Assembly: GCA_903958395.1 (NCBI GenBank)
Contig: CAJBSZ010000101.1
Span: 3,894 to 67,893, forward strand
DNA length: 64,000 bases
Reading direction: 5' to 3'
From: an uncultured bacterium
GTDB taxonomy: Bacteria > Verrucomicrobiota > Kiritimatiellia > CAIKKV01 > CAITUY01
Positions 1,990 to 51,864 of this stretch are shown one piece after another. The position numbers and the translations under genes are program-made. Under the pieces are notes generated by a model, which had not been told where the DNA came from, did no database searches, and was given only the letters and a program-made list of their open reading frames with translations. Numbering within the stretch: the stretch's first letter is position 1; every line of letters begins with the position of its first letter.

Positions 1990-2078
1990 GGTGCCAACAT
2001 AACACAGGAGTTCGGGGTTGTCGAAGCGTAATTCAGTCCACTTTTGACGAATCCTGAAATTTCACATAAAGTCACGGC

Positions 2079-4516: not shown

Positions 4517-4571
4517 AAAGCAGGGCTTTAACGGATTGATCTGGGGGAGTGCTTCGGGTACGGTCTGCGTC

Positions 4572-16060: not shown

Positions 16061-17183
16061 AACGTTTGATCAGGATAAGCCCGAGCCCGATTGACACGAC
16101 CGCCGGAATCCAGACGATCAAATGGGGCTGGGTCCAGGGATGTTTAATGAGGGTTTCCGCCACAATGATGAAAAGGTAGAAGAGGAAGATCAGGCCGAGA
16201 CTGATTCCGATTCCCACGGTGGTTTCCTGCCGGTGGGTTTTTGTGGCCAGTGGGGCGCCGAGCAGAACGAACGCAAAGCAGGCTACCGCCAGCACGATGC
16301 GCTTGTGAAATTCGACCCGCAGCGACATATCCTGCCGTTCGAGAGCCGCTGCATCAAGTTCCGGATAAATCTTTTTGATCCCGTTCCGGGCGTCCATGAT
16401 TTCAAGCAGAGTCATATCACTTTTTTTCTTCACCCCGCCGGCGGGCTCGGCACCGGTGAGACGGCTCAGGTCAATCACGTAGGGGAAATGGCTTGCGGTT
16501 CCCGGTCCGGGGCGATCCTCGTAAAAGGGGTCGATGCGAACCTCATAAAGGTCAACCAGCAGGCCTGTTTTATCAGCGGTCGGGGAGATGGTTCCGCGCT
16601 GGGCCCGGATGGTTCGTGGCGCGGACCCTCTCTGGTTCTGATAGATGATCACATCCTCGACGTTCTGGCCGCGCTTGGAGCCGACGTAAAAGGTGATGCC
16701 TGGAAAATCACGGATGGGGCGGCCCTCCTCAATCAATTGCAGGGGGGATTCAATCCCGAGCTGGCGCAGGGCGTCCCGCCGGGCGTGGTAGCTGATGGGA
16801 ATCAGCTCGGCGTTCAAATAGAGGCAGACGGAGGCCATCAGGAGTGCAAAGAGGATGGGAGCAGCCATGATTTGAAGCATGCGAATGCCGCTTCCCTTCA
16901 TGGCGGTGATTTCACCGTTGGCGGAAAGTTTTCCAAAGGTCAGGAGCGCCGCCGTGATGATGCTGACGGGGATGGAGAAGCCGAAGGCGGAGGGCAGCCC
17001 GGCCAGGAATATTTTGGTGATCAACGCCAGGGATCCGCCTGCGGCAATGGCGTCGGTGATCCGGAAAAGCACCATCACGCACATGACAAAGGTCAGCACA
17101 AACAGGGTCATCCCGAAGGTAACCAGATAACTGTCCCTGACATATCGTGAAACAATGCGCACTACCGTTCTCCCGAAAAACAA
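16053..17183 (-). CDS. LptF/LptG-family LPS export permease (YjgP/YjgQ)
   Basis: 376 aa with N-terminal TM helices, a large periplasmic loop and C-terminal TM helices; typical LptF/G topology. Confidence 0.7.
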   Translation of the reverse strand: MFFGRTVVRIVSRYVRDSYLVTFGMTLFVLTFVMCVMVLFRITDAIAAGGSLALITKIFLAGLPSAFGFSIPVSIITAALLTFGKLSANGEITAMKGSGIRMLQIMAAPILFALLMASVCLYLNAELIPISYHARRDALRQLGIESPLQLIEEGRPIRDFPGITFYVGSKRGQNVEDVIIYQNQRGSAPRTIRAQRGTISPTADKTGLLVDLYEVRIDPFYEDRPGPGTASHFPYVIDLSRLTGAEPAGGVKKKSDMTLLEIMDARNGIKKIYPELDAAALERQDMSLRVEFHKRIVLAVACFAFVLLGAPLATKTHRQETTVGIGISLGLIFLFYLFIIVAETLIKHPWTQPHLIVWIPAVVSIGLGLILIKRCD

Positions 17184-17231
17184 GTCCCGTTCTTATACTG
17201 GGCAGGGGGGGGAATGGCAAGGAGAGAAGCG

Positions 17232-18815: not shown

Positions 18816-18841
18816 TTTAGGACTGTTTTTGCGGTGCCGGT

Positions 18842-20251: not shown

Positions 20252-20252
20252 G

Positions 20253-20609
20253 TCAGGAAGGAATCACCTTGATCTGGATGTTCCATTCCCTGGCCAGCCA
20301 GTCCATGAATTCTGCCTGTTCATGAGGAAGGGTGTCAGCAAGCGTTTCGGAGAGAACGGTTCCCAGAATGAGTTCGCGCGCGTCGGGATTGGTGATGGTT
20401 TTCAGGAAAGCCTTGAGCGCGCTCCGGTCGGGAAAAAGACTTTCTGCCTCATCCGCCAGTTCATGAAAAGTATCGTCGCCCAGTTCATCGACAATATCCT
20501 CTATCTGGGCCACCTCCATATCGGTAATGGTACGGTCACTGATGACGGCGACTTCCGTCAAGGCCACAAGGGCGAGTTGCTCATTACGGGACAGTTCTTT
20601 CAAGGTCAT
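20253..20609 (-). CDS. acidic hypothetical protein (possibly TerB-like)
   Basis: 118 aa, strongly acidic, with no diagnostic motif; 1-nt gap to wbaP suggests co-transcription. Confidence 0.4.
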   Translation of the reverse strand: MTLKELSRNEQLALVALTEVAVISDRTITDMEVAQIEDIVDELGDDTFHELADEAESLFPDRSALKAFLKTITNPDARELILGTVLSETLADTLPHEQAEFMDWLAREWNIQIKVIPS

Positions 20610-20683
20610 GGAGGTCCTTTCTTTTCGATTCAGTGCTCAAGGTAGCATGATTTTCACTGAACTGCATCATCGGAATCGCCGGG

Positions 20684-23014: not shown

Positions 23015-23251
23015 CGTGGCTATGAAATTGTGTCTTCAACCGGAGTCATTGGCACATAGTATTATTATTGATATCCTGATCAATCACTTTTCGTATGCCA
23101 ACGATCACAATCTGGTGAAAGACGACAAATCTTCTGTTCCATTCTTCTGGATCGGCAGGTATTTAGAGGCGTCTGCCTTGGAATATTTGATGCCGCCGTT
23201 GACGGGAGAGGGTGGGCTCGGCTAAAGTGACCCGGTTTTGAGTTCGCCATT

Positions 23252-24367
23252 ATGAAGATTATTGACCGATATATTTTGAAGCAGTACCTCGTTCCCTTCG
23301 GGTACATTCTGGGCACGTTCAGCCTGCTTTACATCATTTTGGATTTATTTGACCGGTTTTCTGATTTTGTGGCCGTCAAGGCGGATGCCCTGGATATCCT
23401 GCTATACTACGGCTATTTCCTGTTCAAGGTGAACGGGTTCGTTCCGTTTCTGGTCATGGTGCTTCCCATTGCGATGCTGCTCGCCACGCTGTACACCCTG
23501 ACGCTGTTCGCCCGGCATAATGAGCTTACGGCCATGTGCGCCAGCGGAGTCAGCCTGCGCCGCCTGATGGTACCCCTGATGGTTGTCGGGTTGCTCGCCA
23601 GTTTGTTCGGTGCCGTGGTTCAGGAAACCATAGGGCCGGTGGCAACACGCTGGATTGCAAACTACACTAAACAGGTGCTGAAGCGTTCGAGCGATTCGTC
23701 CTTTGTTGTGAGGGATTACCTGTATCATTCAGGAACTGCGAACCGGCAATGGTTGATTAAGGAACTTGATCAGCGAACACCCACCGTTCTGAAGGGTGTC
23801 AAGGTTACGCATGAACGGCCGGATCGTTCGCTGGTTAGGGAAATCACGGCGGATCGTGCCGAATGGATGGATGGGTCCTGGTGGTTTTACGGGGTGCGCC
23901 AGCGGGATTACAACGAAAAGAGCGATCCAGTCGGAGCCCAGACCGAGGTGTTGGATAAGCCTATTGAAATGACGGACTATGACGAGCAGCCTGATGATTT
24001 CATCAACGAACTCAAGGATGTGGACTTTCTCTCCACAGCCGATATGGTCCGCTCCATTCAAAAGCGGCCGGATGTCTCCGGGCGATGGCTGGCAAAGCGG
24101 TTGACTGACATCAATTCCCGGGTGGCAATGCCCTGGTCCTGCCTGGTTCTGATTTTGTTGGGGCTGCCTGCCGCCCTCGGAGGGGGACGACAGTCGGCAA
24201 TGCGAAGTGTGGCCTTCGGGGTGGTCGCTTTGTTTGCCTTCTATGTGCTGATCCAGATGGGGATGATTCTTGGCAAGCGGGAGCTCATTTCCCCCTGGCT
24301 TGCCGGCTGGCTCCCGAATCTTACATTTCTGGGGATTGGCGGCTGGCTGACCTGGCGGTTGCGATAG
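23252..24367 (+). CDS. LptF/LptG-family LPS export permease (second copy)
   Basis: MKIIDRYILKQYL... is the canonical LptF/G N-terminus; 371 aa with the same topology as the first copy. Confidence 0.7.
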   Translation: MKIIDRYILKQYLVPFGYILGTFSLLYIILDLFDRFSDFVAVKADALDILLYYGYFLFKVNGFVPFLVMVLPIAMLLATLYTLTLFARHNELTAMCASGVSLRRLMVPLMVVGLLASLFGAVVQETIGPVATRWIANYTKQVLKRSSDSSFVVRDYLYHSGTANRQWLIKELDQRTPTVLKGVKVTHERPDRSLVREITADRAEWMDGSWWFYGVRQRDYNEKSDPVGAQTEVLDKPIEMTDYDEQPDDFINELKDVDFLSTADMVRSIQKRPDVSGRWLAKRLTDINSRVAMPWSCLVLILLGLPAALGGGRQSAMRSVAFGVVALFAFYVLIQMGMILGKRELISPWLAGWLPNLTFLGIGGWLTWRLR

Positions 24368-25178
24368 TCGACAGCTTCTTTTTGAGCGTCCACACCAGAA
24401 GGGAAATGCCGCCCAGAGCGAGCATCGCGAGGGTGATCTGTGCGATGGAATGAGCCAGGGTTTCCTTGCTGAACCCCTTCCCCAAGCCGCTCCCGATTGC
24501 TGCCACCAGGGCGGAACTGGGCAGATATCCCAAAAAAGAACCCAGCAGGAAATACCGGTGCTTAACCGGAGTCAGCCCCAGAATGAGATTGGGAACCACT
24601 CCAGCAATGGGAAGCTGGCGCACCAGGAAGATGGTGAACGTCGAGGGCTTCTTGAGCAGATCGCGCAGTCGACGGTTCTTTTCGATACGCTTCATCACCC
24701 AGTCCCGTCCACCCCAGCGGGCAAAGATAAAGGTGGTGTAGGAGCCGAAAAGGGCGGAGAGCTGACCGACGATGAAACCGGTTTGAAACCCGAACAGGAC
24801 GGCCGCCAGGCCGCACAGGAACATACGGGGAATGCCGATGGCAATCAGGCCGGTGCTGACCAGAAAGAATAATGTGGACGCCCAGATCCCGAAGTGCTGG
24901 ATGGTGTGCTTCCAGGCCTGATCGTTGGTGAGTTTCTGCAGGGGTGTGAAATGCACGATGGCGATGCAGACCACCACCACCAGCGCCATGAGTAGAAGTT
25001 TCTGTTCCGATTTTCCGGCTGACTCCGCAACCTCGAGTTCCAGTTCAATGGGGACCGGATCCGGCTCATCCGAAGGAGTGGGCGTGGGTGGCGTCGTTGA
25101 TGACCCCGGCGGAGAATTGGGTGTGGCTCCCTCAAATGTTGAAGGATCCGTGTTTCGTTCATCAAATTCTTCGCTCAT
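24321..25178 (-). CDS. DedA/TVP38/TMEM64-family membrane protein
   Basis: Pro/Thr-rich N-terminus followed by the SNARE-associated/DedA core; start placed at the internal ATG 25178. Confidence 0.7.
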   Translation of the reverse strand: MSEEFDERNTDPSTFEGATPNSPPGSSTTPPTPTPSDEPDPVPIELELEVAESAGKSEQKLLLMALVVVVCIAIVHFTPLQKLTNDQAWKHTIQHFGIWASTLFFLVSTGLIAIGIPRMFLCGLAAVLFGFQTGFIVGQLSALFGSYTTFIFARWGGRDWVMKRIEKNRRLRDLLKKPSTFTIFLVRQLPIAGVVPNLILGLTPVKHRYFLLGSFLGYLPSSALVAAIGSGLGKGFSKETLAHSIAQITLAMLALGGISLLVWTLKKKLSTIATARSASRQSPEM

Positions 25179-25180
25179 GG

Positions 25181-27553
25181 TTATTTGTCCCTCGCCAGGA
25201 TGTGGATTGCGACCCACTTCCCCTGAGAATAGTTGAAGCCCGGGATGATATCCAGCGTTTGAATTCCAGGGGTGTTCAAGGCCTCCCGGAAGGGGTTCAG
25301 TCGGGTTTCCGTGACGACCAGGATTCCTTTCCCGGGTGCCGCCGCCCAGGCCGGGAGGTCGGGCCCCTCGAGGGAAATGAGGGGCGCTTTCCTGCCCAGA
25401 TAAAAATTCAGGCTCGGTTCGCCGTACCCGCAGGTGGTTACCGGGGTGTCCGGGCTGGCTTGTTCCTGGATAAAAGACGCGATGAGCGGTGCCACTTTAT
25501 AGGATTCCACTGCGGGGAGCAGGAACAATGCGGTGGAAAGAAAAGCCGTCATCATGCCCGCGATCAGGATTCCGGCCACCGTCCCGTGTCGGGCGCGCTG
25601 GTAATGTCGCCACACCAGAAAGACCATGGTGAGAAAAATGACTCCGACTCCCGTGGCGGGAACTCGTACTCCGAAAACTGGGAGGAACCAGGGTACGCTG
25701 ATCAGGGCGAGGCCGAGACTGAGGCCGACCAGAAGAAATAGACCGAGCCCGATCCGGGCGGCAAGGGTTCGGTTTCCGGCCAGCCCCTCACTCATGGCCC
25801 GCTGAAGTCCCAGCGCCGTGGCAATGGCCAGCGCCGGCCAGGCGGGCAGGATGTAGTGGGGCAGTTTGGTCGCCACCAGACTCATCAGGAGAATGACCGG
25901 CACTCCCCAGCAGAGAAGAAGTTTTCTCCCGCTCCCTTCAGGGGAGCGGGTTGGGGTGAGGATGCTGCGTCCGGAAAAGAGTCGCGGCAGATAGAGTGTC
26001 CATGGGAAAAAAGCTAGGAGAATGACCGGCAGATAATAGAAATAAAACACAAAGGACTGTCCGCCGTGGCTTTCCATGGCATTCAGGGAGCGGGCGACGA
26101 CATGTTTCCCAATACCCAGACGCAGAAACTCGCCGTTGGTTGCGGCATTGGCCGGAAGGCCCCACGCCAAAAACAACACCGTGGCCGATGCCACGGCGAA
26201 GATAAGCCATCCCAGATAAGGGAGCGGACGGAGAACTCCTCCTTTGGCAAAGATCATGATGGCGGCTATGACCAGGAGCGGGACGGCTAGCCCAACCGGG
26301 CCTTTTGTCAGGATGGCCCCCGCCAGCGCGAGGATCATCAGGGGAAGGTGCCAGACCTTGAATCCCCGGAACCATGACAATAGGAAGGTTGAGATGGCCC
26401 CGGTGATGCAGGCGAGGAGCAGGGCGTCGGTTGTGGCGGCGGTTCCGCTGACGGCCATGAGGGGGGAGAGCATCAGGATCAGGCCTGCTATGAGGGCCGG
26501 CTTGGGGCCGGTCAGGCGGCGGGCAATCCAGACTGTGAGCAGGGCTGTGATCAGCGTGGCGATGGGCGCTACCAGGCGGCAGGCCAGTTCGGAGGGGCCG
26601 AGGAGGCGGACCGGCAGTGACATGAGCCAGTAGATCAGGATGGGTTTATCGGCCCGCAACTGGCCATTGAAGGTGGGGACGAGATAGTTTCCGGATTCCA
26701 CCATCTCGACGGTCGCACGCGAAAACCGGGGCTCATCGCGATCCCACAGCGACGAGGCGGCGCAGAGCGAGAGGTAGAGAGTGAAAATGAGTGCGAAAAG
26801 CAAAATGGAACTTCGCATGGGTTTTTTCTGCCATGCAGGAAAAAGACGGGCGATCAACAGGAAGCCGCCCAGTGGGCCCCAGATTCGAAGGAAATCCAGA
26901 ACAAAGGGCGTGGCGCGGGCCCAGGCGAGGTTGATGACAGCAAAGGCGATAATCAGAATTCCGGCGATGAAAAACCAGCGGCGGGGCGGCCGCCAGTGCC
27001 ACCTTCGAAGAATGGCCAGGGCGACGGCGGAGGCGATCAGGCCGAGCGCGGCGCCCGTGAGGGCATCACTGGGGAAATGCCGGCCGTCATAGATCCGGCC
27101 GGTGATCACGCCGCCCGTGATCACGGCGGCGAGGGGTGCGGTCCACGGCGAAGCAGTCAGTAGGGGGGCGCAGAAAGCGGCGGCCGTGGCGACATCTCCG
27201 CTGGGAAATGACTCATCATTTGTAAAGGCCGGGCGTTCGCGTCCTACAACGATTTTGAGAGGTGTGACCAGAATGGCGACCACGCCGAGAGCCAGCAGGA
27301 TGTGCATCGCTTTCCGACGTGCCCCGGCCACTCCCAATGCAGCAATGATGAGGAGAATGACGTCGCCTTTCCCGAAAGGGCGGACGAGATTCAGGAGTTC
27401 CTGGACAATATGGATTTTTCCAACCCGGTGGGAAAAGGTTCGCAGGGTCTGGTAGATAGCGGAATCAAGCGGAAAAATCAGAGCCGCAACCGCCAGCAGG
27501 AGGGCGGCGGGCAGAAGGTAAGACACATAGACTGATTTAACCGGTTGCTTCAT
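25181..27553 (-). CDS. fusion protein: N-terminal PAP2 phosphatase + C-terminal ArnT-like (GT83) glycosyltransferase
   Basis: Residues ~90-170 carry the PAP2 motifs (RERPAF, PSGD, GRHFPSDA). The remaining ~600 aa form an ArnT-type GT-C with an ...RDEPRFSRATVEM... N-terminal motif and many TM helices. Confidence 0.7.
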   Translation of the reverse strand: MKQPVKSVYVSYLLPAALLLAVAALIFPLDSAIYQTLRTFSHRVGKIHIVQELLNLVRPFGKGDVILLIIAALGVAGARRKAMHILLALGVVAILVTPLKIVVGRERPAFTNDESFPSGDVATAAAFCAPLLTASPWTAPLAAVITGGVITGRIYDGRHFPSDALTGAALGLIASAVALAILRRWHWRPPRRWFFIAGILIIAFAVINLAWARATPFVLDFLRIWGPLGGFLLIARLFPAWQKKPMRSSILLFALIFTLYLSLCAASSLWDRDEPRFSRATVEMVESGNYLVPTFNGQLRADKPILIYWLMSLPVRLLGPSELACRLVAPIATLITALLTVWIARRLTGPKPALIAGLILMLSPLMAVSGTAATTDALLLACITGAISTFLLSWFRGFKVWHLPLMILALAGAILTKGPVGLAVPLLVIAAIMIFAKGGVLRPLPYLGWLIFAVASATVLFLAWGLPANAATNGEFLRLGIGKHVVARSLNAMESHGGQSFVFYFYYLPVILLAFFPWTLYLPRLFSGRSILTPTRSPEGSGRKLLLCWGVPVILLMSLVATKLPHYILPAWPALAIATALGLQRAMSEGLAGNRTLAARIGLGLFLLVGLSLGLALISVPWFLPVFGVRVPATGVGVIFLTMVFLVWRHYQRARHGTVAGILIAGMMTAFLSTALFLLPAVESYKVAPLIASFIQEQASPDTPVTTCGYGEPSLNFYLGRKAPLISLEGPDLPAWAAAPGKGILVVTETRLNPFREALNTPGIQTLDIIPGFNYSQGKWVAIHILARDK

Positions 27554-41760: not shown

Positions 41761-42663
41761 TTAGGGGGCGTGGCGGAGAGGGTCAAGAGGGGAATGAGCG
41801 GCCGCGACGGAGGTGGTGGACGATGTCGGGCAGGCGATGCAGCGGCAGAGTCCCGCCTCTTTCAGTGCCTGCGGGCCATCGAAGAAGGGCTTGTCCGGAA
41901 CCGTGAATCCCACCCGTCGGGCCTCATCCACCAGAATGTGAAGATAGTCTGTCATATGTCGCGCCGTGTAGGGATTGACATCATGAAAGTTCAGGATGAC
42001 GGTGAGCGAGGCCGCCGGACTGCCGCTGTGCCTGGCGTTTTGAAAGATCTCAATGAGGGCGTTCCGGATATGGATCCGCCGGAACAGGCTGCCCTTGTAG
42101 CCGTAGATCAGGCCGTCCCTCGCCCGGATATCCGCCATGAGCATGTGAAGTCCCAGCGCCTCATAGAGGGCCTGTGTCGTTTGATTTTTTGCCCCGAACG
42201 GCGGGCGCACGAATATCGGATCCGAGCCCGTGATGTCCCGAAGCAATGCCTGGGCCGCCTTGAGTCCTGCCTCCAATTCAGCGGGCGGGACTTTCCGGTG
42301 ATCCACATGGCCCCGGGGTGATACACTATGAATGCCGAGCAGGTGCTCCTCTGCGGCGAGGGCCCGCATGACGGCGTGGCCTTCCGGGGTGCCCCCTCCG
42401 CGCGGATGCCCCGTTTGGACAAAAAAGAGGGCCTTGGCGCCCGGTTGCACATCATTGGTGGCAAGTTGATGCAGGATGGCGAGGGTCGGGTTGTAGGGCT
42501 TTGTGATGCTGGGACCGTCATCAAAGGAGAGGATGAAGCGGATCACCGGCGGCGGAATGCCCGCATCATGCGCGGAGGGGGCGGGAATGGAGCGGCAGGA
42601 TGACAGGACTCCTGCCAGCAGGATCAAGCCCGACAGCTGTGCTGGAATCGCCGGGGATTTCAT
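41761..42663 (-). CDS. polysaccharide deacetylase (NodB-homology) lipoprotein
   Basis: Signal peptide with an LSSC lipobox, then the SFDDGP catalytic motif of carbohydrate esterase family 4; ATGA overlap with the activase gene. Confidence 0.65.
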   Translation of the reverse strand: MKSPAIPAQLSGLILLAGVLSSCRSIPAPSAHDAGIPPPVIRFILSFDDGPSITKPYNPTLAILHQLATNDVQPGAKALFFVQTGHPRGGGTPEGHAVMRALAAEEHLLGIHSVSPRGHVDHRKVPPAELEAGLKAAQALLRDITGSDPIFVRPPFGAKNQTTQALYEALGLHMLMADIRARDGLIYGYKGSLFRRIHIRNALIEIFQNARHSGSPAASLTVILNFHDVNPYTARHMTDYLHILVDEARRVGFTVPDKPFFDGPQALKEAGLCRCIACPTSSTTSVAAAHSPLDPLRHAP

Positions 42664-43634
42664 CGGGAGCCTCCCGCCTGAACCCCTTGTTCCCATTTCC
42701 GGCAGCGTCCCCCGCTGCGGCCCAGGGATTCGTCATGATCCAGGATCTCTATCACCTCGCACTGGTTCGGGCAGTCGTTGCACCGGAAGCCGCGTGTGGC
42801 GATCTCACGGTCACAGAGGCTGTAACCACGAAAACGGGTTCGGATCGGATTGGCGCGGGCTGCGAGCAGGGCCGCGCCATAAGCACCCATGACCATGTTG
42901 TGTTGCGGGATGATGACCTCGGTCTGGAGAGCCTCATTGAAGGCCCGGCGGATTCCCCGGTTGGCGCTGACCCCGCCCTGCAGGACGATGGGGGGGCGGA
43001 TTTCCTTTCCGGCGCAGACATTGCTGAGGAAGTTGCGCACCATGGCCTGGCACAGGCCCATGACGATATCGTGCTGCTGGTGGCCGGCTTGCTGCTTATG
43101 GATCATGTCGGATTCGGCAAAGACGGTGCAACGCCCCGCAATGGTGGTGGGATCGCTCGAGAGGAGCGCCCGTTCGCCCAGTTCCTCAATGGAGAGGCTG
43201 AGTCGCTTGGCTTGTGAATCCAGAAAACTTCCCGTACCCGCGGCGCAGATCAGGTTCATGGCAAAGTCCACCACCACGCCGTTGCGCAGGATCGTGACCT
43301 TGCTGTCCTGCCCCCCGATTTCAAAAATGGTGTTCGCCTCCGGGTGCAGATGCAGCGCAGCCCGGGCATGGGCGCTGATCTCATTCTTCACGATGTCCGC
43401 CCCGACGACGGCTCCGATCAGGGTGCGGGCACTCCCCGTGGTGCCGACTCCGGCGATTTCCAGGGTGCCGGGAACCGTCTGGCGCATCTCCAGAAGTGCT
43501 TTCTGAACGGAGTGGATCGGATTGCCATCAACCCGCCGGTAGGCGGTGAAGAGGACCGTCGAGCCGGAATCAATCAATACCAGATTGGTGCTGATCGAGC
43601 CGACATCAATCCCGAGATAGGCTTGGGTTGTCAT
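42660..43634 (-). CDS. BadF/BadG/BcrA/BcrD-type ATPase (HgdC-like activase of acyl-CoA dehydratase/reductase systems)
   Basis: AYLGIDVGSISTNLVL ASKHA-fold start and IFEIGGQDSKV motif; C-terminal Cys pair consistent with a bridging [4Fe-4S] cluster. Confidence 0.75.
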   Translation of the reverse strand: MTTQAYLGIDVGSISTNLVLIDSGSTVLFTAYRRVDGNPIHSVQKALLEMRQTVPGTLEIAGVGTTGSARTLIGAVVGADIVKNEISAHARAALHLHPEANTIFEIGGQDSKVTILRNGVVVDFAMNLICAAGTGSFLDSQAKRLSLSIEELGERALLSSDPTTIAGRCTVFAESDMIHKQQAGHQQHDIVMGLCQAMVRNFLSNVCAGKEIRPPIVLQGGVSANRGIRRAFNEALQTEVIIPQHNMVMGAYGAALLAARANPIRTRFRGYSLCDREIATRGFRCNDCPNQCEVIEILDHDESLGRSGGRCRKWEQGVQAGGSR

Positions 43635-44704
43635 GATGAGGCCTGCTTTCTTCGTTCCCGCAGAATGTCTGTAAAGGCTTCCAACCGGGTGACGATCCCG
43701 ACATGGCTGCTGTGTTCGTCAAATGACAGTTCGAGAATGGGGATCGAGTGGTCCTGGCTGATCTTGCGCAGGATCGGGCGGATGGTGATTTCCGGCATAC
43801 AGCCGGTGGGGGCGATATGAATGACCCCGTCATAGTGCTCCTGGGCGCAGCGCAGGGTGTAGGCCACGGATTCCAAGGCGTGGCCGCCCACCCGCGACTT
43901 GAGATAGGGACGCGCAAGCCGGTTCAGGGAGTCACGGGAATCCGGGCTCCGGAATCCGATGTGGAAGATTTTAGCCAGTTCGTTTCCGAGCAGGAAAAAA
44001 TTCTGAACCTCGACGCCCAGGCTGCCCAGGGTTTCTTCCAGGTTGTGGTTCAGATAACTGTCCCGCAGGATTGAGGCTTCGCCCAGCAGTCCGATTTTCA
44101 GGGGCCTGGCCGCTGCGTCGGTGGGGACGGTGTGGAAGCGTGCGGGAATCGTCCGGGACAGGGCCCGGATGGCAGGCACGGTTCGGGCCTCGTCCAAATC
44201 CTTGAGGCACGTATTCATGAGGCGGGTGGTGTCGCCGGTGTGGAGCTCCCGTGCCCGGGTTTCCCAGGCCAGCTTTTCAATGGCGTCCACGGCATGAACC
44301 TTGAAAAAAGCGCGGCCGCAGCAGCGGAGGAAATCGCCCATCGTGGGGTCGAAATGGCGGATCAGGGGCGGCTTGATCCCGTCATAACCCAGTCCAAAGA
44401 TGAACAGATTGAATCCGCGATCCCTGAGGATTTTCTGCTGCAGTTCCCGGTAGTACCGGAGCCGGCAGGTGCCCACGCTGTTGACCATGACCCCGTATTC
44501 CACGCCTTCCATGGCCGCCTTGATGAAATAGCCGGTCGTAGCCTTAAAGGCCAGACAGCTGAACTCGGGCGAGGCGTCCGTCCCGAGTTTCATGATTTCA
44601 GGCGTGGTGCAGCGGGTGCTCCACGGGGTGACTCGCAGGCACTCCACGGAGGCGGCCAGCGCAATCGAATAGTTTCCCCAGGGGGGTATGGCCAGGGCTG
44701 TCAT
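43631..44704 (-). CDS. DUF2229/COG3580-81-type protein (uncharacterised partner of HgdC-like activases)
   Basis: Cys-containing motifs (GTCRLRYY, RCCGRA, PTGCMPE); start trimmed to the ATG at 44704, which abuts the upstream stop. Confidence 0.55.
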   Translation of the reverse strand: MTALAIPPWGNYSIALAASVECLRVTPWSTRCTTPEIMKLGTDASPEFSCLAFKATTGYFIKAAMEGVEYGVMVNSVGTCRLRYYRELQQKILRDRGFNLFIFGLGYDGIKPPLIRHFDPTMGDFLRCCGRAFFKVHAVDAIEKLAWETRARELHTGDTTRLMNTCLKDLDEARTVPAIRALSRTIPARFHTVPTDAAARPLKIGLLGEASILRDSYLNHNLEETLGSLGVEVQNFFLLGNELAKIFHIGFRSPDSRDSLNRLARPYLKSRVGGHALESVAYTLRCAQEHYDGVIHIAPTGCMPEITIRPILRKISQDHSIPILELSFDEHSSHVGIVTRLEAFTDILRERRKQASS

Positions 44705-44705
44705 G

Positions 44706-47153
44706 TTACCATCTCGTTGAATCCACAAATGCCTCCAGCCGGGTATCCGTTCCGGCCTGTGCGGCGTGTTCATCCACCACTAAAGTCATGGTGGGAATCC
44801 CTTTTGTTTTGAGTATGTCGCGGTTGAATTCCATCACAATGGAGTCGCATCCGCAATTGAAGGAGGTGAGTTGGATGACGGCGGCGCATTCAGCCGCATC
44901 CAGGGTCTTGAGATGGTGGATCATTTTTCCGCAGGTGTCCCACTTGATGTTGCCCGTCGGCATTTCCTCGCCGTCAAAGGGCATCAGGTCAACATCCACA
45001 TCGAGTCGTTTCAAGGTGGCGAGAATGGGGCCGGAAATATAGTCGTCGTGGAGATTGTAGGGATGGCTGATGACCAGGAGTCTTTTCCGTGCCGGACCCG
45101 GGGGGCGGACGGGCGGACGGCGCGCCTGGGCGAGGGCGGCGAGGGCGGCATCGGCGGCGGTGCACGTCAGGGCTTCCTCCGCGCCAAGGCGGCGGCCCAG
45201 TTCCAGCAGGGAGTCGCGCAGGGGCGTTATGGTTTCATTGATATCAAGGCTCAGGATCCGGGTGCGGTTCCCGAACTGGGCCTCGGCAACATCGGGCAAA
45301 GCGGAAAGTTTGGGGCAGGCAATGTGTCCCTTCAGGCCCGACAAAAGACGTGGAACAAAAAGCCGATCCACTTTACCGGCGAGTTCGGCCAGGTGGGCGT
45401 CGAGTAGTTTGAGTGGCAGGCAATGTTCCGATTCCGAGATCAGGACGGCCTGCTCGACCGTGTGACGGGTTGAAGCGCCGGACATTACGGGGGTGTGTCC
45501 GAGCTGGGTGAAGAAGGTTTCGAAAAGGGAGGGATAGTAAAAATAATACAGGGCGCGGGGGATGCCGATGGTCAGCGGCCTGAAACCTGTGCCATCCACC
45601 ACCGTTTTCAAAGCGGTGAAAGCGTCTGGGCGCATCTCCTGGAGAATCATGAGGCTGGCGTTGACGGCGGCCTTGGTGGCCATGGGCACTCCGCCCCCGT
45701 ACTCCGCCCATTGGCCGCCCAGCAACAACCGTTTGACGGGGGTCGTGAGAGTGGCGAGGCGGGCGTGGATGTTTTTTTGGGTCGGCTTGTGTCCCATGAT
45801 CGAGCCGTCCCGGTTTCCCGTGTAGCGGTGGAACGTAACCGGAGTGGCCACCTCCCTGACCTCGATGTGGCGGCGAAGGCCGGGGATCAGCAGGCGCTCG
45901 ACCCGGTCGAGAATCGTGTCGGTGAATTCCTGCTTATACCGGCGATAGGCTTCCCCGCGCTCCAGACCGGGTCCGGTTTCCCACTGATTGTGATGGGACA
46001 GGTAGGAGGGGCACTGGATGAGGAGAGTGCCTTTCCCCGGAGGGGCCAGGGAGGGATCGCGGAGAGAAGGGGCCAGAACGCTGATCAGGGTGGAATGGGC
46101 TTCTCCACTGACCCGATCTTCCAGGGGTATGGAGTCCTCAGTCAGGCGAACCAGGGACTCATCCAATCCAAGCGAGGCGGGGGGGCAATCCAGTCCCAGA
46201 TAAATTGAGAAGCTGGAGTAATACAGATCTGCATGACGAAGGCGCTTGAGTATTCTGGCGGGAACGCTGGCAGGGGGAAGCATCGTGGTGAAGAGCTGTT
46301 CCACATCGCAGGCGGCGATGACGTAGCGGGCGTGCACGGTGTCGCCGGTGGCGAGCCGGACTCCGGTCGCTTTTTTGGAGGCGTTGACGAGGACTTCACG
46401 GACGCGTTGGTTCAGGGTGATTCGGCCGCCGTTTTCGGTGATTTTCCGGCACAGCCAGTCCACCATTACGGCGCAGCCTCCCTCAGGCGGCTTTTGGAAA
46501 TCACCTGTGAAAGCGAACCCCAGCGGGACGAGAACCGACATCATGGTGCCATCGGAGTGAAAGAGATTCAGGAGTTCGCGGGTCTTGAAATAGCGGGTTA
46601 ATCCCCTGGCGGCCGGGGTTGATACCATATGGCGGATGGGCCAGACCCAGCCCGTCATGGCCAGGCCGTGATGCAGGAGTTCGCGGGGGGACATGGTTTT
46701 CACCGACCGCATGCGGTTGTCGAGGAACAGCATATGATGGCCGAGGCGTTCGGCGTCCCGGAAGAGTTTCTGAATCCCCTTTGATTCATGGGGAAAGTCC
46801 TGGATCAGTTGATCGCGAAGTTCCAGAGGGTTCGAGGTGAGCAGATAATTATGACCGGTGTTTTTATAGCGATGAATCCGCTGGAGCGGGACATAGCGCG
46901 GGCCGTCGTTGCCAATGGCGTGCTGAATACGGGCGAGAAAGCCGCCCGGGCGGCATTGGTTCAGCCATTCAAGGGAGGCGTCAAACGTGAATCCCTTGCG
47001 GTGGAACGAGGCCAGACAGCCGCCCGCCTGTGATTCTGTTTCGAAGAGCTCGACACGGAGACCGGCCTTCGACAGCAGGGCGGCGGCAGTTAATCCTGCA
47101 ATACCACCCCCGATGATCACGACATCGCAGTGAGTTGGACGGCCCATAGTCAC
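44706..47153 (-). CDS. fusion: CrtI/phytoene-desaturase-family FAD oxidoreductase (N-terminal ~500 aa) + DUF2229/HgdB-like domain (C-terminal ~300 aa)
   Basis: N-terminal CDVVIIGGGIAGLTAAALLSKAGLRVELFE dinucleotide-binding motif and the amine-oxidase/CrtI-like body. The C-terminus carries TIGIPRALYYFYYPSLFETFF and SFNCGCDS motifs typical of activase-associated DUF2229 proteins. Confidence 0.6.
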   Translation of the reverse strand: MTMGRPTHCDVVIIGGGIAGLTAAALLSKAGLRVELFETESQAGGCLASFHRKGFTFDASLEWLNQCRPGGFLARIQHAIGNDGPRYVPLQRIHRYKNTGHNYLLTSNPLELRDQLIQDFPHESKGIQKLFRDAERLGHHMLFLDNRMRSVKTMSPRELLHHGLAMTGWVWPIRHMVSTPAARGLTRYFKTRELLNLFHSDGTMMSVLVPLGFAFTGDFQKPPEGGCAVMVDWLCRKITENGGRITLNQRVREVLVNASKKATGVRLATGDTVHARYVIAACDVEQLFTTMLPPASVPARILKRLRHADLYYSSFSIYLGLDCPPASLGLDESLVRLTEDSIPLEDRVSGEAHSTLISVLAPSLRDPSLAPPGKGTLLIQCPSYLSHHNQWETGPGLERGEAYRRYKQEFTDTILDRVERLLIPGLRRHIEVREVATPVTFHRYTGNRDGSIMGHKPTQKNIHARLATLTTPVKRLLLGGQWAEYGGGVPMATKAAVNASLMILQEMRPDAFTALKTVVDGTGFRPLTIGIPRALYYFYYPSLFETFFTQLGHTPVMSGASTRHTVEQAVLISESEHCLPLKLLDAHLAELAGKVDRLFVPRLLSGLKGHIACPKLSALPDVAEAQFGNRTRILSLDINETITPLRDSLLELGRRLGAEEALTCTAADAALAALAQARRPPVRPPGPARKRLLVISHPYNLHDDYISGPILATLKRLDVDVDLMPFDGEEMPTGNIKWDTCGKMIHHLKTLDAAECAAVIQLTSFNCGCDSIVMEFNRDILKTKGIPTMTLVVDEHAAQAGTDTRLEAFVDSTRW

Positions 47154-47584
47154 GCCAGAGTGAAAAACGCGGCGGCATCCAGGATGGAAAGCCCGTTTTT
47201 GTGAAGGGCTTTGGAGGCCTGGTCGGGCTTGTCCACCCGGACAATCATGATTGCGTTACTGCCCCGCTTAAGGGTAAAGGCGTACATGTATTCGATGTTG
47301 ATGGCATTGGGTTCCAGGATGGCCAGAATGCTTTCCATACCCCCGGGATGATCCGGAATTTCAATGGCCAGTACATCGCTGATAGTCACCACGCAGCCGG
47401 CCTTCTCCAGTACGTCCCGGGCCTTTTCCCACTCCCTGATCATGATCCTCAGAATGCCGAATTTTCCAGTGTCCGCGAGGCAGAGGGTTGGGATATTGAT
47501 GCCTGCCGCCGCCAGCACCTTGCAAGGATGGCCGAGGCGGCCGGGTTTGTTTTCCAGACAGACAGACAGTTGTTTCAGTGTCAT
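47150..47584 (-). CDS. tandem ACT-domain protein
   Basis: Two ~65-aa beta-alpha-beta-beta-alpha-beta ACT-like units; 4-bp overlaps on both sides. Confidence 0.6.
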   Translation of the reverse strand: MTLKQLSVCLENKPGRLGHPCKVLAAAGINIPTLCLADTGKFGILRIMIREWEKARDVLEKAGCVVTISDVLAIEIPDHPGGMESILAILEPNAINIEYMYAFTLKRGSNAIMIVRVDKPDQASKALHKNGLSILDAAAFFTLA

Positions 47585-49608
47585 ACGCCCTCCTTTCCGG
47601 TCAACAGTTGTGAAGCCATGAAATGTTTCCGAATCGCACCGGTAAGGGCCATGGGATCGGTCCGGTTCAGCCGGTCAAGCACCCGTTCCCACCGATAGGC
47701 AAAACTGCCCTTTTCATCACGCGGGCGTTGTTTAAAAAGCGTATCGAAGGACCGTTTTCGCCGTGTATAATCCTGTTTCACATGAAGAAACCGTTCCGTA
47801 AATGAGGCAAGATAAGCCTCCAGCACTTCTCCGGGAGAGGAAAAAAAGGGGAGTCGGCGTCGGATGGGCTCCGCATAGGCCTCCGCAAAGGAAGCCAGAT
47901 CAGACTGATAATCCGTGAAGGTGCCGGTGTGATCGGCGACGATGATTTCCCTGGGCATGCCGAACTCGTCCTCTATCAAAACCTCATCGCCATCGTCGAA
48001 CAGCACGGCGTTTTTCAGGTTCAGGCGGCCTGTGATGATATTGGACGCGGCGGCCCGGCCCAGTAACCTCGCAAAGGCGAGGGAATACGTGAGGCTCTGG
48101 AAACGGGAACGGGGGATCTTGTCGGTGGCCATGCCGGAGAGATAGTCGCGTTCGAAATAGGTGGACCAGATCTGCTGGCCGTCATACCGGGTTCCGTGGT
48201 AGTGCTCGCTGATTTTGCGGGTTGTGATGCGGGCGGGCAGGTTCATGCCCAGCTGACGGCAGCCCAGTCTGCGATCCAGGATATATTCGGTGTAGTCCTC
48301 CGCCTCCATGATGGCGGGGAGGAGATCCTTGCCCTCGTTCAGGTGTTCCCGGATTCCCCATTTCTGCATGCGAAGAATACGGACAACAGGGTGCGGCGAA
48401 CTGTTTTGTTTGATCTCCGCCACATACACATCGCGGCGGCCGGAGCTCGAGGGTCGGCGTGATAGCGAGCCGATGACCCGGCCGACATTGACATAATCAA
48501 TATCCCCGAATTCGCGAAGGAAATTAAAGATGAACCCGCGTGCCTTTTCGTCGCAGAGGATCCTCAATTCGGAATCAGGGGGTGAACGATCCGCTTCATC
48601 GAAAAGGCTGTCGAACATCAATTCCCCCTCTTCGATGCGGCCGCCGGGGAGCCATTCGATCTGCATGAAGAATTCGGAACTCAGTCCGAGGATGGTTTCT
48701 TCGGGAAGGGCTTCGCCTCCCTGACCGATCAGGCATGAAAACATCAGGTTTCGCCAGTCGGGATTATCGGGATTGTCTTCCCTCATTTCCGGCCGCACGG
48801 CATCGCGAAAGGCCGCTTTGAGGTGTTCATAACAGGTGCGGATATCCGGAGGAGATTGATCCATGGGTTCGCAGGGTTTGAAGCTGGAATGGTCGAATGA
48901 TTTGTCGGTGGAAAAAAAGGCTACTTCGGGGTGGCCCATGCGGTTGTAGCGGCATGAAAAATCCCGGATTTCAATCAGATGTGCCTGGAGTTCATTGTCC
49001 GGCAGGGTTTCGAGTTCACAGAACTGCTGGTAGGTCAGGAATCGCGTGCCGATGTCGCGACTGTAATAGTAGATGGAACGGCCCCCGATCGGCAGCATGG
49101 CTGAGGCGATCATGCGTTTCATTTCATCAGGACTTTGGGGGAGCAGGGCAATCCGCCAGTTTTCGCCACGTTCCTTGATGGCATAGCGGACTTTTTCATT
49201 CATGAGGTTGAGAAACTTGATTTTCTGCTTGGAGACCAGTTCCTGAAGCAGGTCGTCGGCTTCGAAGGCCAGTGCCATGTTCTCGGGATCAGGCCGGATC
49301 AGGATGCTCCCGGGGTCCATGATCAGGTCAACCGACAGCTGCCATTCCAGCATCTCGTCCTCTTCGGACAGCGGGGGCTGGTTGGCTTGTTTCCGGGTGG
49401 CGTTAAGATCGGCGATATAGGCAAAGCGCTGGGTGGCGTGGATGCCGGGCAGGGTGACGAGGGTCCGGCTCCGGGGAAAGATCGTGCCGATCCGTGAGAT
49501 CAATCGTCCCTGCTGATCCTTCGCAAGCGGGTGTTCACCTAGAATTCGAATAGTCATTCCCTCGCATACTACCAATCCCTCCCTGTATTGAACAATCTGC
49601 TTTTTCAT
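47581..49608 (-). CDS. large hypothetical protein; C-terminal region with AceK-like (isocitrate dehydrogenase kinase/phosphatase family) motif, tentative
   Basis: No standard motif in the N-terminal half. The C-terminal half has AAASNIITGRLNLKNAVLFDDGDE, which resembles the AceK catalytic-loop/metal-binding segment AAANIFPGDMLFKNFG...FYDYDE (recalled from E. coli AceK). Start placed at ATG 49608. Confidence 0.35.
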   Translation of the reverse strand: MKKQIVQYREGLVVCEGMTIRILGEHPLAKDQQGRLISRIGTIFPRSRTLVTLPGIHATQRFAYIADLNATRKQANQPPLSEEDEMLEWQLSVDLIMDPGSILIRPDPENMALAFEADDLLQELVSKQKIKFLNLMNEKVRYAIKERGENWRIALLPQSPDEMKRMIASAMLPIGGRSIYYYSRDIGTRFLTYQQFCELETLPDNELQAHLIEIRDFSCRYNRMGHPEVAFFSTDKSFDHSSFKPCEPMDQSPPDIRTCYEHLKAAFRDAVRPEMREDNPDNPDWRNLMFSCLIGQGGEALPEETILGLSSEFFMQIEWLPGGRIEEGELMFDSLFDEADRSPPDSELRILCDEKARGFIFNFLREFGDIDYVNVGRVIGSLSRRPSSSGRRDVYVAEIKQNSSPHPVVRILRMQKWGIREHLNEGKDLLPAIMEAEDYTEYILDRRLGCRQLGMNLPARITTRKISEHYHGTRYDGQQIWSTYFERDYLSGMATDKIPRSRFQSLTYSLAFARLLGRAAASNIITGRLNLKNAVLFDDGDEVLIEDEFGMPREIIVADHTGTFTDYQSDLASFAEAYAEPIRRRLPFFSSPGEVLEAYLASFTERFLHVKQDYTRRKRSFDTLFKQRPRDEKGSFAYRWERVLDRLNRTDPMALTGAIRKHFMASQLLTGKEGV

Positions 49609-49645
49609 GGTGACAGTTGAGTCGGATTGAATACGATGGGGGGCT

Positions 49646-50566
49646 ATGAATTCGGTATACACCACAACGATTACCCGGGAAGCGCGCACGCGCGGGATTC
49701 AAATTGAAGTGATTGATCCCCGGACTCCCATTTTCGTGCTCAGGCATAAGGGAAAGTCAATCCGGTGTTACAACGCCCTGACGGATCGGGTTGGGGCGGT
49801 GACTTTTCAGATGACCCAGAACAAGGCCCTGGCCAATGTCTTTCTCAAGTCCCGCGGGTTTCCCGTTCCGGCCCAGCAACTTTTCACGGAGCCGGTGTCG
49901 GCGGAGCGTTTTTTGAAGCGATACCGCAGTATTGTTGTTAAACCCTGCTCCCAATGGGGCGGGCGCGGGGTGTCGGTGGCGGTGAAAACGGCTGAGGAAT
50001 TGGCCTGTGCCGTGCGTTTTGCGAAGCGGTTTGAGGAGGAGATCATTCTCGAACAGTATGTCGAGGGAGTGGACTACCGCCTGATATTTGTGGATTTCAA
50101 ATTCGTAGCGGCTATTCGCCGGCGATCCGCCCATGTGGAGGGGAATGGCCGGGATTCAATCCGGAACCTGGTGCAGGCAAAGAACCGGCAGGAACGGCGC
50201 GTTGATCCGAGTCATATCATTCCGCTCGATGCCGAGACGGCTCGCAACCTCAAGGTTTTAGGCCTGTCGTGGGAGCAGGTTCCTGCGGCGGGGCGGGTTG
50301 TTCGCGTCAGGTTGACCTCCAACTACCATACTGGCGGTGATGTGGATGTGGTGACCCATACGGTCAATCGGAAGCTGGTGGCCTTGGCCAGGCGTGCCGT
50401 GAAAGCGCTGAACGTTCCGGTCATTGGCATTGATTTCCTGGTGAATGAGGCAAGCGGTCGGTCGTGGCTGATTGAGTTGAGCCCCGATCTGGCAATTTCC
50501 CCGCCCGAGGGCGAAGAGGTGGCCCGGCATTTCATGAACTTCCTGTTCCCGGAGACAAAACGATGA
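49646..50566 (+). CDS. stand-alone cyanophycin-synthetase-like (CphA G-domain/RimK-type) ATP-grasp ligase
   Basis: IVVKPCSQWGGRGVSVAV...IILEQYVEGVDYRLIFVDFKFVAAIRR closely follows the CphA ATP-grasp core KP.dGN.GRGV...vvE.yi.G.DyRllVv...vAA..R. Confidence 0.65.
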   Translation: MNSVYTTTITREARTRGIQIEVIDPRTPIFVLRHKGKSIRCYNALTDRVGAVTFQMTQNKALANVFLKSRGFPVPAQQLFTEPVSAERFLKRYRSIVVKPCSQWGGRGVSVAVKTAEELACAVRFAKRFEEEIILEQYVEGVDYRLIFVDFKFVAAIRRRSAHVEGNGRDSIRNLVQAKNRQERRVDPSHIIPLDAETARNLKVLGLSWEQVPAAGRVVRVRLTSNYHTGGDVDVVTHTVNRKLVALARRAVKALNVPVIGIDFLVNEASGRSWLIELSPDLAISPPEGEEVARHFMNFLFPETKR

Positions 50567-51864
50567 AATCCTGTCATCTGGTTGGCGTTGCGGGTGTGGG
50601 GATGAATGCCTTAGCTCAGGCACTCAAGGGGGGTGGGTGGGCGGTCAGCGGCTCGGACCGTTATGAGGATCAGGGCCAGGATCTTGAGGTGATCCGGAAG
50701 CTGAAGGAGGCGGGAATTCGATTTTATCCGCAGGATGGATCCGGGATATCCCGAGAGACGGGTGCGGTGGTCGTGAGTACCGCGATTGAGAAGGATAATC
50801 CCGATATCGTCGCTGCGGAAAGGCTTGGGGTCCCTGTGCGGCACCGGGCCGAAATGCTAGCCGAACTCGTTCAGGGAAAGAAAACGGTGGCGATTGCGGG
50901 GACCTCCGGAAAAACGACGGTAACGGGCATGGTCGGCTGGCTTCTCGAGCAACTCGGAGCTGATCCCACGGTGGTCAATGGCGGGGCTCTGGTGAACTGG
51001 GCGGATGATCATCATGTGGGAAACGCGCGAACAGGCGGCTCAGGACTTTGCGTGATTGAGGTCGATGAGAGTGATCGCTCGCTCCTGCGGTTTTCACCCG
51101 ACCGGGCCTTGATTACCAATATGTCGGCTGATCATTTCAGCCTGGAGGAGACCGTCGGGCTTTTCAGCCAGTTCAGGAGTCAGGTCCGGTGCGATTGTAT
51201 TGCAGGGTGGGATCCCGGAATGCCGTGGCAGGGCCTGAAGCCGGTGCTGAGCCGGACCGGGTGCCGCTTCGCTTATGGCGGGCTTGAGTTCGAAATTTCG
51301 TTACTAGGGGCACACAACGCCGAAAATGCGCTTCAGGCGGTTGTGCTGTGCCAGCGAATGGGTTTTGACTTAGGTCGCATTCGCGATGCCCTGGCTCAAT
51401 TCAAGGGTATTCAGCGGCGCCTGGAGCGGGTGGGGGAAGCCGGCGGGGTGACGGTGGTGGATGAGTATGCCCATAACCCGGCGAAAATTTCGGCCGCCTG
51501 GCGGGCTGTGGCTCCTTATTATTCGCGGGTCACCGCGTTCTGGCGCCCGCATGGATTCAAGCCGTTGTCCCTGATGTTCAACGATCTGGTGGCGATGTTC
51601 GGGGACGTATGCCGCCCGCAGGACCGGCTTTTTCTGATGCCGGTGTATTACGCGGGAGGGACGGTGAGTAAGGCGATGGACTCGGATGTGCTTGCGACGG
51701 CGTTGCAGGCGCGCGGGGTGCCCGCCGTATGGGTTCCGGATTACGACCGGTTGATGTCCGGGATTATGAAAGACAGTCAAGCGGGCGAGGTCGTGCTATG
51801 CGTGGGCGCCCGGGACCCCGGCATCCCCCGGTTTGCCCGCGAGTTGGTGACTCGTCTGGGATGA
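50563..51864 (+). CDS. MurC/Mpl-family Mur ligase (paralog of the fused murC)
   Basis: HLVGVAGVGMNALAQALKGGGWAVSGSD Rossmann N-domain, VAIAGTSGKTT P-loop and a VVDEYAHNP C-domain motif; it resembles Mpl/MurC rather than MurE/F. ATGA overlap with the ATP-grasp gene. Confidence 0.7.
   Translation: MKSCHLVGVAGVGMNALAQALKGGGWAVSGSDRYEDQGQDLEVIRKLKEAGIRFYPQDGSGISRETGAVVVSTAIEKDNPDIVAAERLGVPVRHRAEMLAELVQGKKTVAIAGTSGKTTVTGMVGWLLEQLGADPTVVNGGALVNWADDHHVGNARTGGSGLCVIEVDESDRSLLRFSPDRALITNMSADHFSLEETVGLFSQFRSQVRCDCIAGWDPGMPWQGLKPVLSRTGCRFAYGGLEFEISLLGAHNAENALQAVVLCQRMGFDLGRIRDALAQFKGIQRRLERVGEAGGVTVVDEYAHNPAKISAAWRAVAPYYSRVTAFWRPHGFKPLSLMFNDLVAMFGDVCRPQDRLFLMPVYYAGGTVSKAMDSDVLATALQARGVPAVWVPDYDRLMSGIMKDSQAGEVVLCVGARDPGIPRFARELVTRLG

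Follow-up and report, generated by a model that had tools for sequence, protein, structure and literature searches.

Why would a bacterium that already possesses a true MurC carry a second MurC-type ligase directly behind a stand-alone ATP-grasp ligase, with the two genes sharing four base pairs? This arrangement is found in a stretch of 64,000 nucleotides (positions 3,894 to 67,893 of contig CAJBSZ010000101.1, assembly GCA_903958395.1) from an uncultured bacterium of the Kiritimatiellia; we refer to the whole 64-kb stretch as the window. The original prediction, made from the letters alone, presented the pair as a split cyanophycin synthetase. In this study, we reject that interpretation: the two genes are not the halves of a cyanophycin synthetase, and cyanophycin is not their product. 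They form a lineage-specific two-gene operon of independently conserved ligases; our best guess, held with low confidence, is that both enzymes act in peptidoglycan-precursor synthesis or salvage. The features of the pair are the following:

49646-50566, plus strand: ATP-grasp gene, 306 aa, a stand-alone ligase assigned to the CphA-G / GshF / Ngg clade
50563-51864, plus strand: gene of a MurC-fold Mur ligase, 433 aa, of a subfamily labelled sMurC in this analysis
50563-50566, plus strand: ATGA stop/start overlap of the two genes, as read from the sequence, suggestive of translational coupling

Both open reading frames (ORFs) and their overlap were found as predicted. They are real genes and not chance ORFs, since each has hundreds of full-length homologues (443 matches for the ATP-grasp protein and 3988 for the ligase). 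The ATG at 49646 is supported as the start of the ATP-grasp gene because conservation in the family alignment begins at residue 1 (MNSVYTTTIT), and a GGAG motif can be read ~10 nt upstream of the start codon of the ligase. Downstream, a convergent RND (resistance-nodulation-division) transporter gene terminates 15 bp past the ligase gene. The closest loci to the pair come from uncultured metagenome-assembled genomes (MAGs) of the Planctomycetes-Verrucomicrobia-Chlamydiae (PVC) group or the Kiritimatiellia.

The ligase carries all three Pfam domains of Mur ligases (N, M and C). Its AlphaFold2 (AF2) model has a pLDDT of 93.5, and the best Foldseek match is the Haemophilus influenzae MurC (HiMurC), with TM scores of 0.86-0.88 (0.88 for 1p31) against 0.64 for Mpl. 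On the NCBIfam models, it reaches 287 bits for murC (TIGR01082, cut-off 335), where P0214 scores 297 bits, and 113 bits for mpl (TIGR01081, cut-off 388.7). Sequence identity is 29% to the MurC of the window and 33% to that of Escherichia coli. As had been proposed, the N-domain is MurC/Mpl-like; the N-terminal motif HLVGVAGVGMNAL...SGSD is present and conserved family-wide. Three further signatures (DDYAHNP[AE]K, [WF][RQ]PHG[FY]xP[LT] and GARDP) occur without exception in the 80 metagenome loci, whose identities range from 95% to 35%.

To read its active site, we mapped the residue roles reported for HiMurC (PMC3060825) onto the ligase by HMMER alignment; as for the ATP-grasp protein below, the equivalences are drawn from alignments. 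HiMurC D49, K129, T130, E173, E176, N193 and H198 correspond to the conserved D32, K117, T118, E166, E169, N186 and H191, and HiMurC H291, N295, R326, Y346, H348 and H376 to the conserved H251, N255, R286, Y302, H304 and H330. Hence the ligase keeps the Asp that contacts the UDP diphosphate, the P-loop, the Mg ligands (E166, E169 and H191) and the adenine and triphosphate residues. The pocket for the amino acid tells a different story. Among the five residues that bind L-Ala in HiMurC (Y346, H348, H376, R377 and R380; PMC3060825), three are kept (Y302, H304 and H330), and the two arginines that hold the L-Ala carboxylate have been exchanged: R377 corresponds to G331 and R380 to P334, neither of which varies in 36 family members. 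GARDP is a new invariant motif of the family, which places an Arg-Asp-Pro in the C-terminal domain. The central domain has lost ~27 aa in the beta-hairpin region, two 5-aa insertions are present and the Mpl insert is not. A neighbour-joining tree recovers the family as a monophyletic group outside the MurC proteins of E. coli and the window and the Mpl of E. coli; both protein trees of this study are neighbour-joining trees with few reference sequences. Because the core residues are kept, the arginines are replaced and the family branches outside MurC and Mpl, we regard it, on the sequences, as a branch of the MurC/Mpl group in its own right, the third, whose amine-substrate site has been rebuilt, and the residues and the model together predict a catalytically competent enzyme. 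The family was recovered from more than 570 metagenome stretches, assigned to Kiritimatiellia, Verrucomicrobiota and Planctomycetota, together with deeper-branching contigs of unknown taxonomy.

The ligase is the second MurC-type enzyme in the same 64 kb, beside a true MurC fused to MurB. The presence of this separate MurC-MurB protein had been predicted and was confirmed:

20684-23014, minus strand: canonical MurC-MurB fusion, identified by its Pfam domains and its NCBIfam murC score

The fusion contains the Mur ligase N, M and C domains followed by FAD_binding_4 and MurB_C, and murC recognises its N-terminal part with 392 bits, above the cut-off. It is not part of a division and cell wall (dcw) cluster: its flanks (14933-27553) hold LPS and envelope genes, which encode LptF/LptG, PAP2, PMT_2 glycosyltransferases and a Bac_transf sugar transferase.

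The ATP-grasp protein matches generic Pfam models (RimK, ATP-grasp_3 and GSH-S_ATP). Its best NCBIfam match is Ngg (TIGR03103), with 248 bits over positions 241-545 of the 547 of the model, that is, the C-terminal half; CphA follows with 166 bits, GshAB with 144, RimK with 54 and Ddl with ~30. The cut-offs are 569 bits for TIGR03103, 850 for CphA (TIGR02068) and ~245 for Ddl (TIGR01205 and PRK01372). Structural relatives in the PDB are CphA1, CphA2 and GshF. An exhaustive HMMER scan yielded 7605 relatives, and the nearest of them outside the family are stand-alone proteins of 300-330 aa, GNAT-fused proteins of 540-590 aa, proteins as long as CphA and very large ones that combine several ATP-grasp modules. 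In the neighbour-joining tree, the sister group of the family is formed by the GNAT-fused, Ngg-like proteins, with the CphA-length proteins further out.

The kinship to the CphA G domain that had been proposed is supported. K261, R309, R323, N394, D431 and E450 of TeCphA1 correspond to K99, R145, R159, N226, D263 and E277 of the ATP-grasp protein, and K99, D263 and E277 are invariant across its family. In TeCphA1, residues H267, R309, R323, N394, S396 and R458 serve the acyl-phosphate and the aspartate (PMC9427784). H267 is replaced in our protein by G105 (in the loop QWGGRG) and S396 by H228, a His also found in Ngg-like proteins; R458 has no counterpart. Both the QWGGRG P-loop and an invariant ELSPDLAISPPEG segment are unique to the family among the relatives compared. 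We thus place the family, by its sequence, in the CphA-G/GshF/Ngg clade and predict that its acceptor pocket is not of the CphA type; full activity is assumed.

Some homologues are larger than the window protein. P0105, P0107, P0111 and P0119, which share ~59% identity with it, bear Lys/Arg-rich C-terminal tails of 40-100 residues that the window protein lacks. Among large relatives, P0367, P0368, P0369, P0376 and P0379 are proteins of 790-1500 aa with two or three ATP-grasp modules of the same clade and a C-terminal acylphosphatase, some of them with TPR or LPG_synthase_C domains in addition. We know of no described function for this architecture. In the eight large relatives scanned, several ATP-grasp modules were found, in most cases with an acylphosphatase domain and in no case with a Mur ligase domain.

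To determine how general the pair is, the ATP-grasp family was surveyed in one genome per GTDB species. Matches were found in 94 species, all represented by MAGs (Kiritimatiellia, Lentisphaerae, Verrucomicrobiota and Fibrobacteres), and 80 loci were kept. The ligase lies directly downstream of the ATP-grasp gene in ~11 of them, all with at least 69% ATP-grasp identity and all from one clade. Within this clade, which spans 69-95% identity, the spacing of the two genes ranges from overlap to ~50 bp: in the closest loci (L010, L011, L012, L015 and L016), the two genes meet in the tblastn coordinates, in more distant members a gap of ~30-50 bp separates them, and an exact overlap is limited to the closest relatives. 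Additional examples of the pair come from metagenomes. Adjacency of the pair thus arose once, in one Kiritimatiellia lineage, and each family is conserved separately across PVC bacteria.

Outside this lineage, each gene keeps other company. In a clade of four species (L071, L073, L078 and L079; MAGs labelled Verrucomicrobiota, Akkermansia or only "bacterium"), the gene immediately before the ATP-grasp gene encodes a true alanine racemase (TIGR00492, 299 bits, cut-off 168), and in L079 (8823-10909) the two ORFs overlap by 4 bp. In L171 (860-3605), which holds a deep-branching ligase of 41% identity, a gene for a YkuD L,D-transpeptidase overlaps the start of the ligase by 17 bp. Several ligase loci adjoin a pair of ORFs that look bactofilin-like by eye and have no NCBIfam match. 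Other neighbours of the ligase vary by clade: ArgC, a flippase-like membrane protein, or ComEC together with an LpxC-like gene. No dcw genes accompany the ligase in the loci retrieved with it.

In the reactions of CphA, GshF and Ngg, the alpha-carboxylate that receives the new amino acid belongs to an N-acylated amino acid or peptide. By the chemistry of this clade, the ATP-grasp enzyme would phosphorylate such a carboxylate and then add one amino acid. The ligase would probably activate a UDP-linked carboxylate, most likely that of UDP-N-acetylmuramic acid (UDP-MurNAc), and would couple it to another amino acid or a peptide. L-Ala bound as in MurC is a less likely amine, because the arginines for its carboxylate are lost and an Arg-Asp-Pro is gained. 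In such a scheme, the ligase would be a second, Mpl-like loader of UDP-MurNAc, and the ATP-grasp enzyme would extend or build a peptide, possibly with D-alanine. A role in peptidoglycan precursors is our best guess because an alanine racemase and a MurC-type ligase occur as two neighbourhoods of the ATP-grasp gene, and because the ligase has a MurC-like UDP-binding domain. The L,D-transpeptidase overlap at one ligase locus and the bactofilin-like ORFs, recognised only by eye, are further links to peptidoglycan. The original prediction had offered two fallbacks, namely that the pair makes a UDP-MurNAc-linked adduct or that an Mpl-like ligase works with an accessory amino-acid ligase, and these are still the functions that we find most plausible.

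A bolder version of the peptidoglycan reading, which we regard as a long shot, is an undescribed route of stem-peptide salvage. The ligase would load a recycled tri- or tetrapeptide on UDP-MurNAc in the manner of Mpl. The ATP-grasp enzyme, like other members of its clade, would then lengthen an N-acylated peptide at its C-terminus, here by putting back D-alanine from the alanine racemase to which it is coupled in another clade. A cross-linkable pentapeptide might then be rebuilt without Ddl/MurF or an L,D-carboxypeptidase. If this were true, the enzyme would be the first ATP-grasp ligase known to act directly on a UDP-MurNAc-peptide.

Several observations weigh against a shared role in the cell wall. 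The pair adjoins in only ~11 of the 80 ATP-grasp species loci and in 4 of 83 ligase metagenome loci, all from one clade, so that the adjacency may be a historical accident. The coupling to alanine racemase is likewise a single evolutionary event. In the ATP-grasp protein, the Asn of the Mg-binding ExN motif aligns, in a comparison of sequences alone, to the invariant S279 (E-L-S-P-D), which falls within ELSPDLAISPPEG. In the ligase, the HiMurC residues that contact the uracil, I50 and H70, are R33 and Q57, so that the nucleotide-sugar substrate is only putative. Finally, the most phylogenetically spread neighbourhood of the ligase is an operon with a pteridine-reductase-like short-chain dehydrogenase/reductase (SDR) and FolB, and it points to pterin or folate metabolism instead of the cell wall. 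There, overlapping genes encode the SDR (PRK09134/09135-like, ~230 bits), the dihydroneopterin aldolase FolB and then the ligase, in at least two ligase clades (L009, 6661-9087; L101, L112, L117, L127, L131-L133 and L136). The SDR neighbours do not form one uniform cluster, which proved to be partly a clustering artefact: the planctomycete-type SDR (L008) is sugar-dehydrogenase-like, and only the verrucomicrobial type is pteridine-reductase-like.

These data could also mean that the two enzymes are unrelated neighbours, whose genes have been inherited in one operon within a single lineage although their pathways differ. The ligase would then serve a pterin- or folate-linked, or another nucleotide-linked, carboxylate ligation. 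The ATP-grasp enzyme would make an N-acyl dipeptide resembling the osmolyte N-acetylglutaminylglutamine amide (NAGG), or would extend the C-terminus of a protein or peptide together with a kinase-fold protein. The gene of that protein lies divergently upstream of the ATP-grasp gene in 18 of the 80 loci, as in the window, and it is this gene, and not the ligase, that is the most frequent ATP-grasp neighbour; the remaining loci have neither of the two adjoining. The restriction of the pair to one clade fits unrelated roles as well, as does the fact that Ngg, the nearest characterised relative, makes a free dipeptide. The Lys/Arg-rich tails of some homologues would suit binding of a protein, RNA or an acidic polymer. 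On the other hand, no GNAT or AsnO-type amidotransferase gene recurs beside the ATP-grasp gene in the 80 loci (in L001, an unrelated GNAT gene is found at a distance of ~7 kb), and the kinase-fold gene has unrelated neighbours in other genomes. The N-domain of the ligase is strongly MurC-like, and to our knowledge FolC-type ligases have no such domain. Moreover, alanine racemase and MurC-type neighbours in two separate clades both indicate the cell wall. The FolB/pteridine-reductase operon of the ligase and the kinase-fold neighbour of the ATP-grasp gene nevertheless make separate pathways nearly as likely as a common role in peptidoglycan.

The divergent side of the locus is organized as follows:

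47581-49557, minus strand: gene of the divergent kinase-fold protein, 658 aa (675 aa with a start at 49608)
49558-49645, no strand: divergent intergenic region between the kinase-fold gene and the ATP-grasp gene, given the orthologue-based start of the former

The divergent arrangement is as had been described, but the distance of ~37 bp presumes a start at 49608. A 72%-identical orthologue aligns from Met18 onward only (MTIRILGEHPLA); therefore, the gene probably starts at 49557 and the gap is 88 bp. A scan of the locus for promoters and terminators gave counts equal to chance, and the single sigma-70-like match in the intergenic region (49610-49637) does not exceed chance expectation.

The kinase-fold protein, ~650 aa long, has no match among Pfam, NCBIfam or PHROGs families. 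We collected 2266 homologues with 55-90% identity from Kiritimatiellae, Lentisphaerae and Planctomycetaceae. Foldseek searches with its AF2 model (pLDDT 85) returned weak but consistent matches of the C-terminal half to PI3K/PI4K and protein kinases. K383 (VAEIK), E420, N506, D521-x-G523-D524-E525 (DDGDE) and D542-x-x-G545 (DHTG) are invariant in the family. These motifs suggest an atypical kinase. Co-regulation of the pair with the whole 8-gene minus-strand operon, as had been envisaged, does not agree with its conservation: among the relatives, L012, the nearest, is the only one that retains the operon, and beyond it just the first gene, that of the kinase-fold protein, recurs beside the ATP-grasp gene.

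The rest of this operon encodes an ACT pair, a CrtI-like FAD protein fused to DUF2229, an HGD-D-like protein, a BcrAD activase, a polysaccharide deacetylase and BamD-like and LptE-like proteins. The fusion (44706-47153, minus strand) is an 815-aa CrtI/amine-oxidase-type FAD oxidoreductase with DUF2229 and an HGD-D-like C-terminus. It is preceded by the ACT-pair protein and followed by the HGD-D-like protein and the BcrAD/BadFG activase (42660-44773), and together these genes form an unusual radical-dehydratase-like module.

The neighbourhood of a MurC-type and an ATP-grasp ligase also recalls murC and ddl. In such a case, the ATP-grasp protein would be a non-orthologous D-Ala-D-Ala (or D-Ala-D-X) ligase and the Mur ligase an alternative MurC isozyme. 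The two-gene operon of alanine racemase and ATP-grasp genes, the overlap of murC and ddlB in E. coli, and the three L-Ala-binding residues kept in the ligase are in line with this idea, and we found no ddl in the 64-kb window, including after the MurC-MurB fusion. Nevertheless, the ATP-grasp protein does not cluster with Ddl, whose models give it 29-30 bits over the central ATP-grasp core only, and the family occurs in MAGs of 94 GTDB species and not in whole phyla. Clustering with Ddl, which the original prediction had named as a result that would refute it, is thus not observed. The characterised members of its clade (CphA, GshF and Ngg) activate N-acylated carboxylates and not free D-Ala. 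Furthermore, dcw genes including ddl are reported to be highly conserved in the reference genomes of Kiritimatiellota and Lentisphaerota (PMC12283558). Because of these last two facts, a replacement of Ddl is disfavoured and we judge it improbable.

A separate observation concerns L053, where a gene near the ATP-grasp gene appeared to be a canonical Ddl. This candidate was rejected, as the match consists of two Ddl-like paralogues below the cut-off. They are tandem ATP-grasp genes (1825-5736; 168 and 114 bits, cut-off 243) located 6 kb from the family ATP-grasp gene, next to a radical SAM gene similar to KamA-type lysine/glutamate 2,3-aminomutases. The Ddl-like genes and the aminomutase may represent a pathway for peptides of beta-amino acids.

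The headline of the original prediction survives less well. A split polymerase of the cyanophycin-synthetase kind would use the ATP-grasp protein to extend a poly-amino-acid backbone and the Mur ligase to decorate its side chains. The two genes do belong to the same enzyme superfamilies, in the same order, as the parts of CphA1, and the ATP-grasp protein aligns over the whole G domain with its six conserved equivalents. However, the Mur partner is of the wrong type, being MurC-like with a UDP-binding N-domain and not a MurE-like M domain. Ngg beats CphA on the ATP-grasp protein, and the CphA model gives 166 bits for that protein, over the G-domain region only, and 32 bits for the ligase, far below its cut-off. 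The equivalents of H267, S396 and R458 and the CphA N domain are missing, and the adjacency arose once. For either gene, none of the 120 best homologues has the length of a fusion of the two enzymes, and none such was seen in the eight multidomain relatives scanned. For these reasons, we reject the split-synthetase interpretation and consider any such two-protein polymerase very improbable. Of note, no S51 or IadA family, as expected for cyanophycinase or isoaspartyl dipeptidase, appeared among the ~30 ORFs of the window scanned with Pfam, although no dedicated search was run. Least credible of all is a stand-alone GshF-type synthetase of glutathione or gamma-Glu-Cys-X: the GshAB models and the GshF structures 3ln6 and 3ln7 are matched, but the GshAB score lies below those of Ngg and CphA, none of the annotated neighbourhoods contains a recognisable glutamate-cysteine ligase, and the P-loop and large loop differ from those of the relatives compared.

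Mur ligases and ATP-grasp ligases are antibiotic targets whose substrate rules are thought to be well mapped, and the peptidoglycan biology of PVC bacteria is still debated. Our literature search returned no publication that deals with the ATP-grasp family, the MurC-like subfamily or their pairing. Our study sets apart, next to MurC and Mpl, a third large branch of their group, which coexists with true MurC and combines an intact catalytic core with an amino-acid pocket that has been rebuilt. It also delimits a stand-alone family related to the ATP-grasp enzymes of cyanophycin and NAGG-type synthesis. Should these families act on cell-wall precursors, they would point to a step or a salvage route that has gone unrecognised in PVC bacteria. 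If the ligase is instead tied to the pterin operon, it would represent a new use of the MurC fold. In either case, automatic annotations of these genes as "MurC" and "Ddl-like" should not be trusted.

Among the known systems, CphA1 (7WAC, 7LG5 and 7LGM) is a single polypeptide composed of an N domain, an ATP-grasp G domain and a MurE-like M domain. Our ATP-grasp protein shares the lid and large-loop architecture of the G domain and stands alone, with no N domain, no fused M domain, the changes at H267, S396 and R458, and E-L-S in the place of ExN. Ngg, the best-scoring curated family, shares the large-loop motif N-x-H-T-G-G; unlike it, the window protein has neither a GNAT domain nor an AsnO neighbour, and its P-loop reads QWGGRG where that of Ngg reads GEQGxG. 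The murC-ddl genes of the dcw cluster and the chlamydial MurC-Ddl fusion likewise join a MurC-type ligase to an ATP-grasp amino-acid ligase, with overlapping genes, but the gene order is reversed here, the ATP-grasp protein is not of the Ddl family and the ligase is not the housekeeping MurC.

The ligase itself stands between two models. With MurC (H. influenzae 1P3D), it has in common the three-domain fold, the glycine-rich UDP loop with SGSD, the P-loop GTxGKT[TS], the Mg ligands, the adenine and triphosphate residues and the equivalents of Y346, H348 and H376. It differs from MurC in its score below the equivalog cut-off, the low identity, the exchange of the two arginines, the GARDP motif, HNP instead of HHP, the deletion in the central domain, the two 5-aa insertions, and its occurrence beside a true MurC with no dcw context in the loci examined. 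From Mpl (TIGR01081; Psychrobacter arcticus 3HN7), it differs in lacking the (S/T)AFFDKRSK insert and the EPRSNT motif, in its loop (GVAGVGM against GI(C/G)GTFM), in its low score and structural similarity, and in its position outside Mpl in the tree. Still, both are second MurC-type ligases, encoded outside the dcw cluster beside MurC and provided with a remodelled C-terminal substrate pocket.

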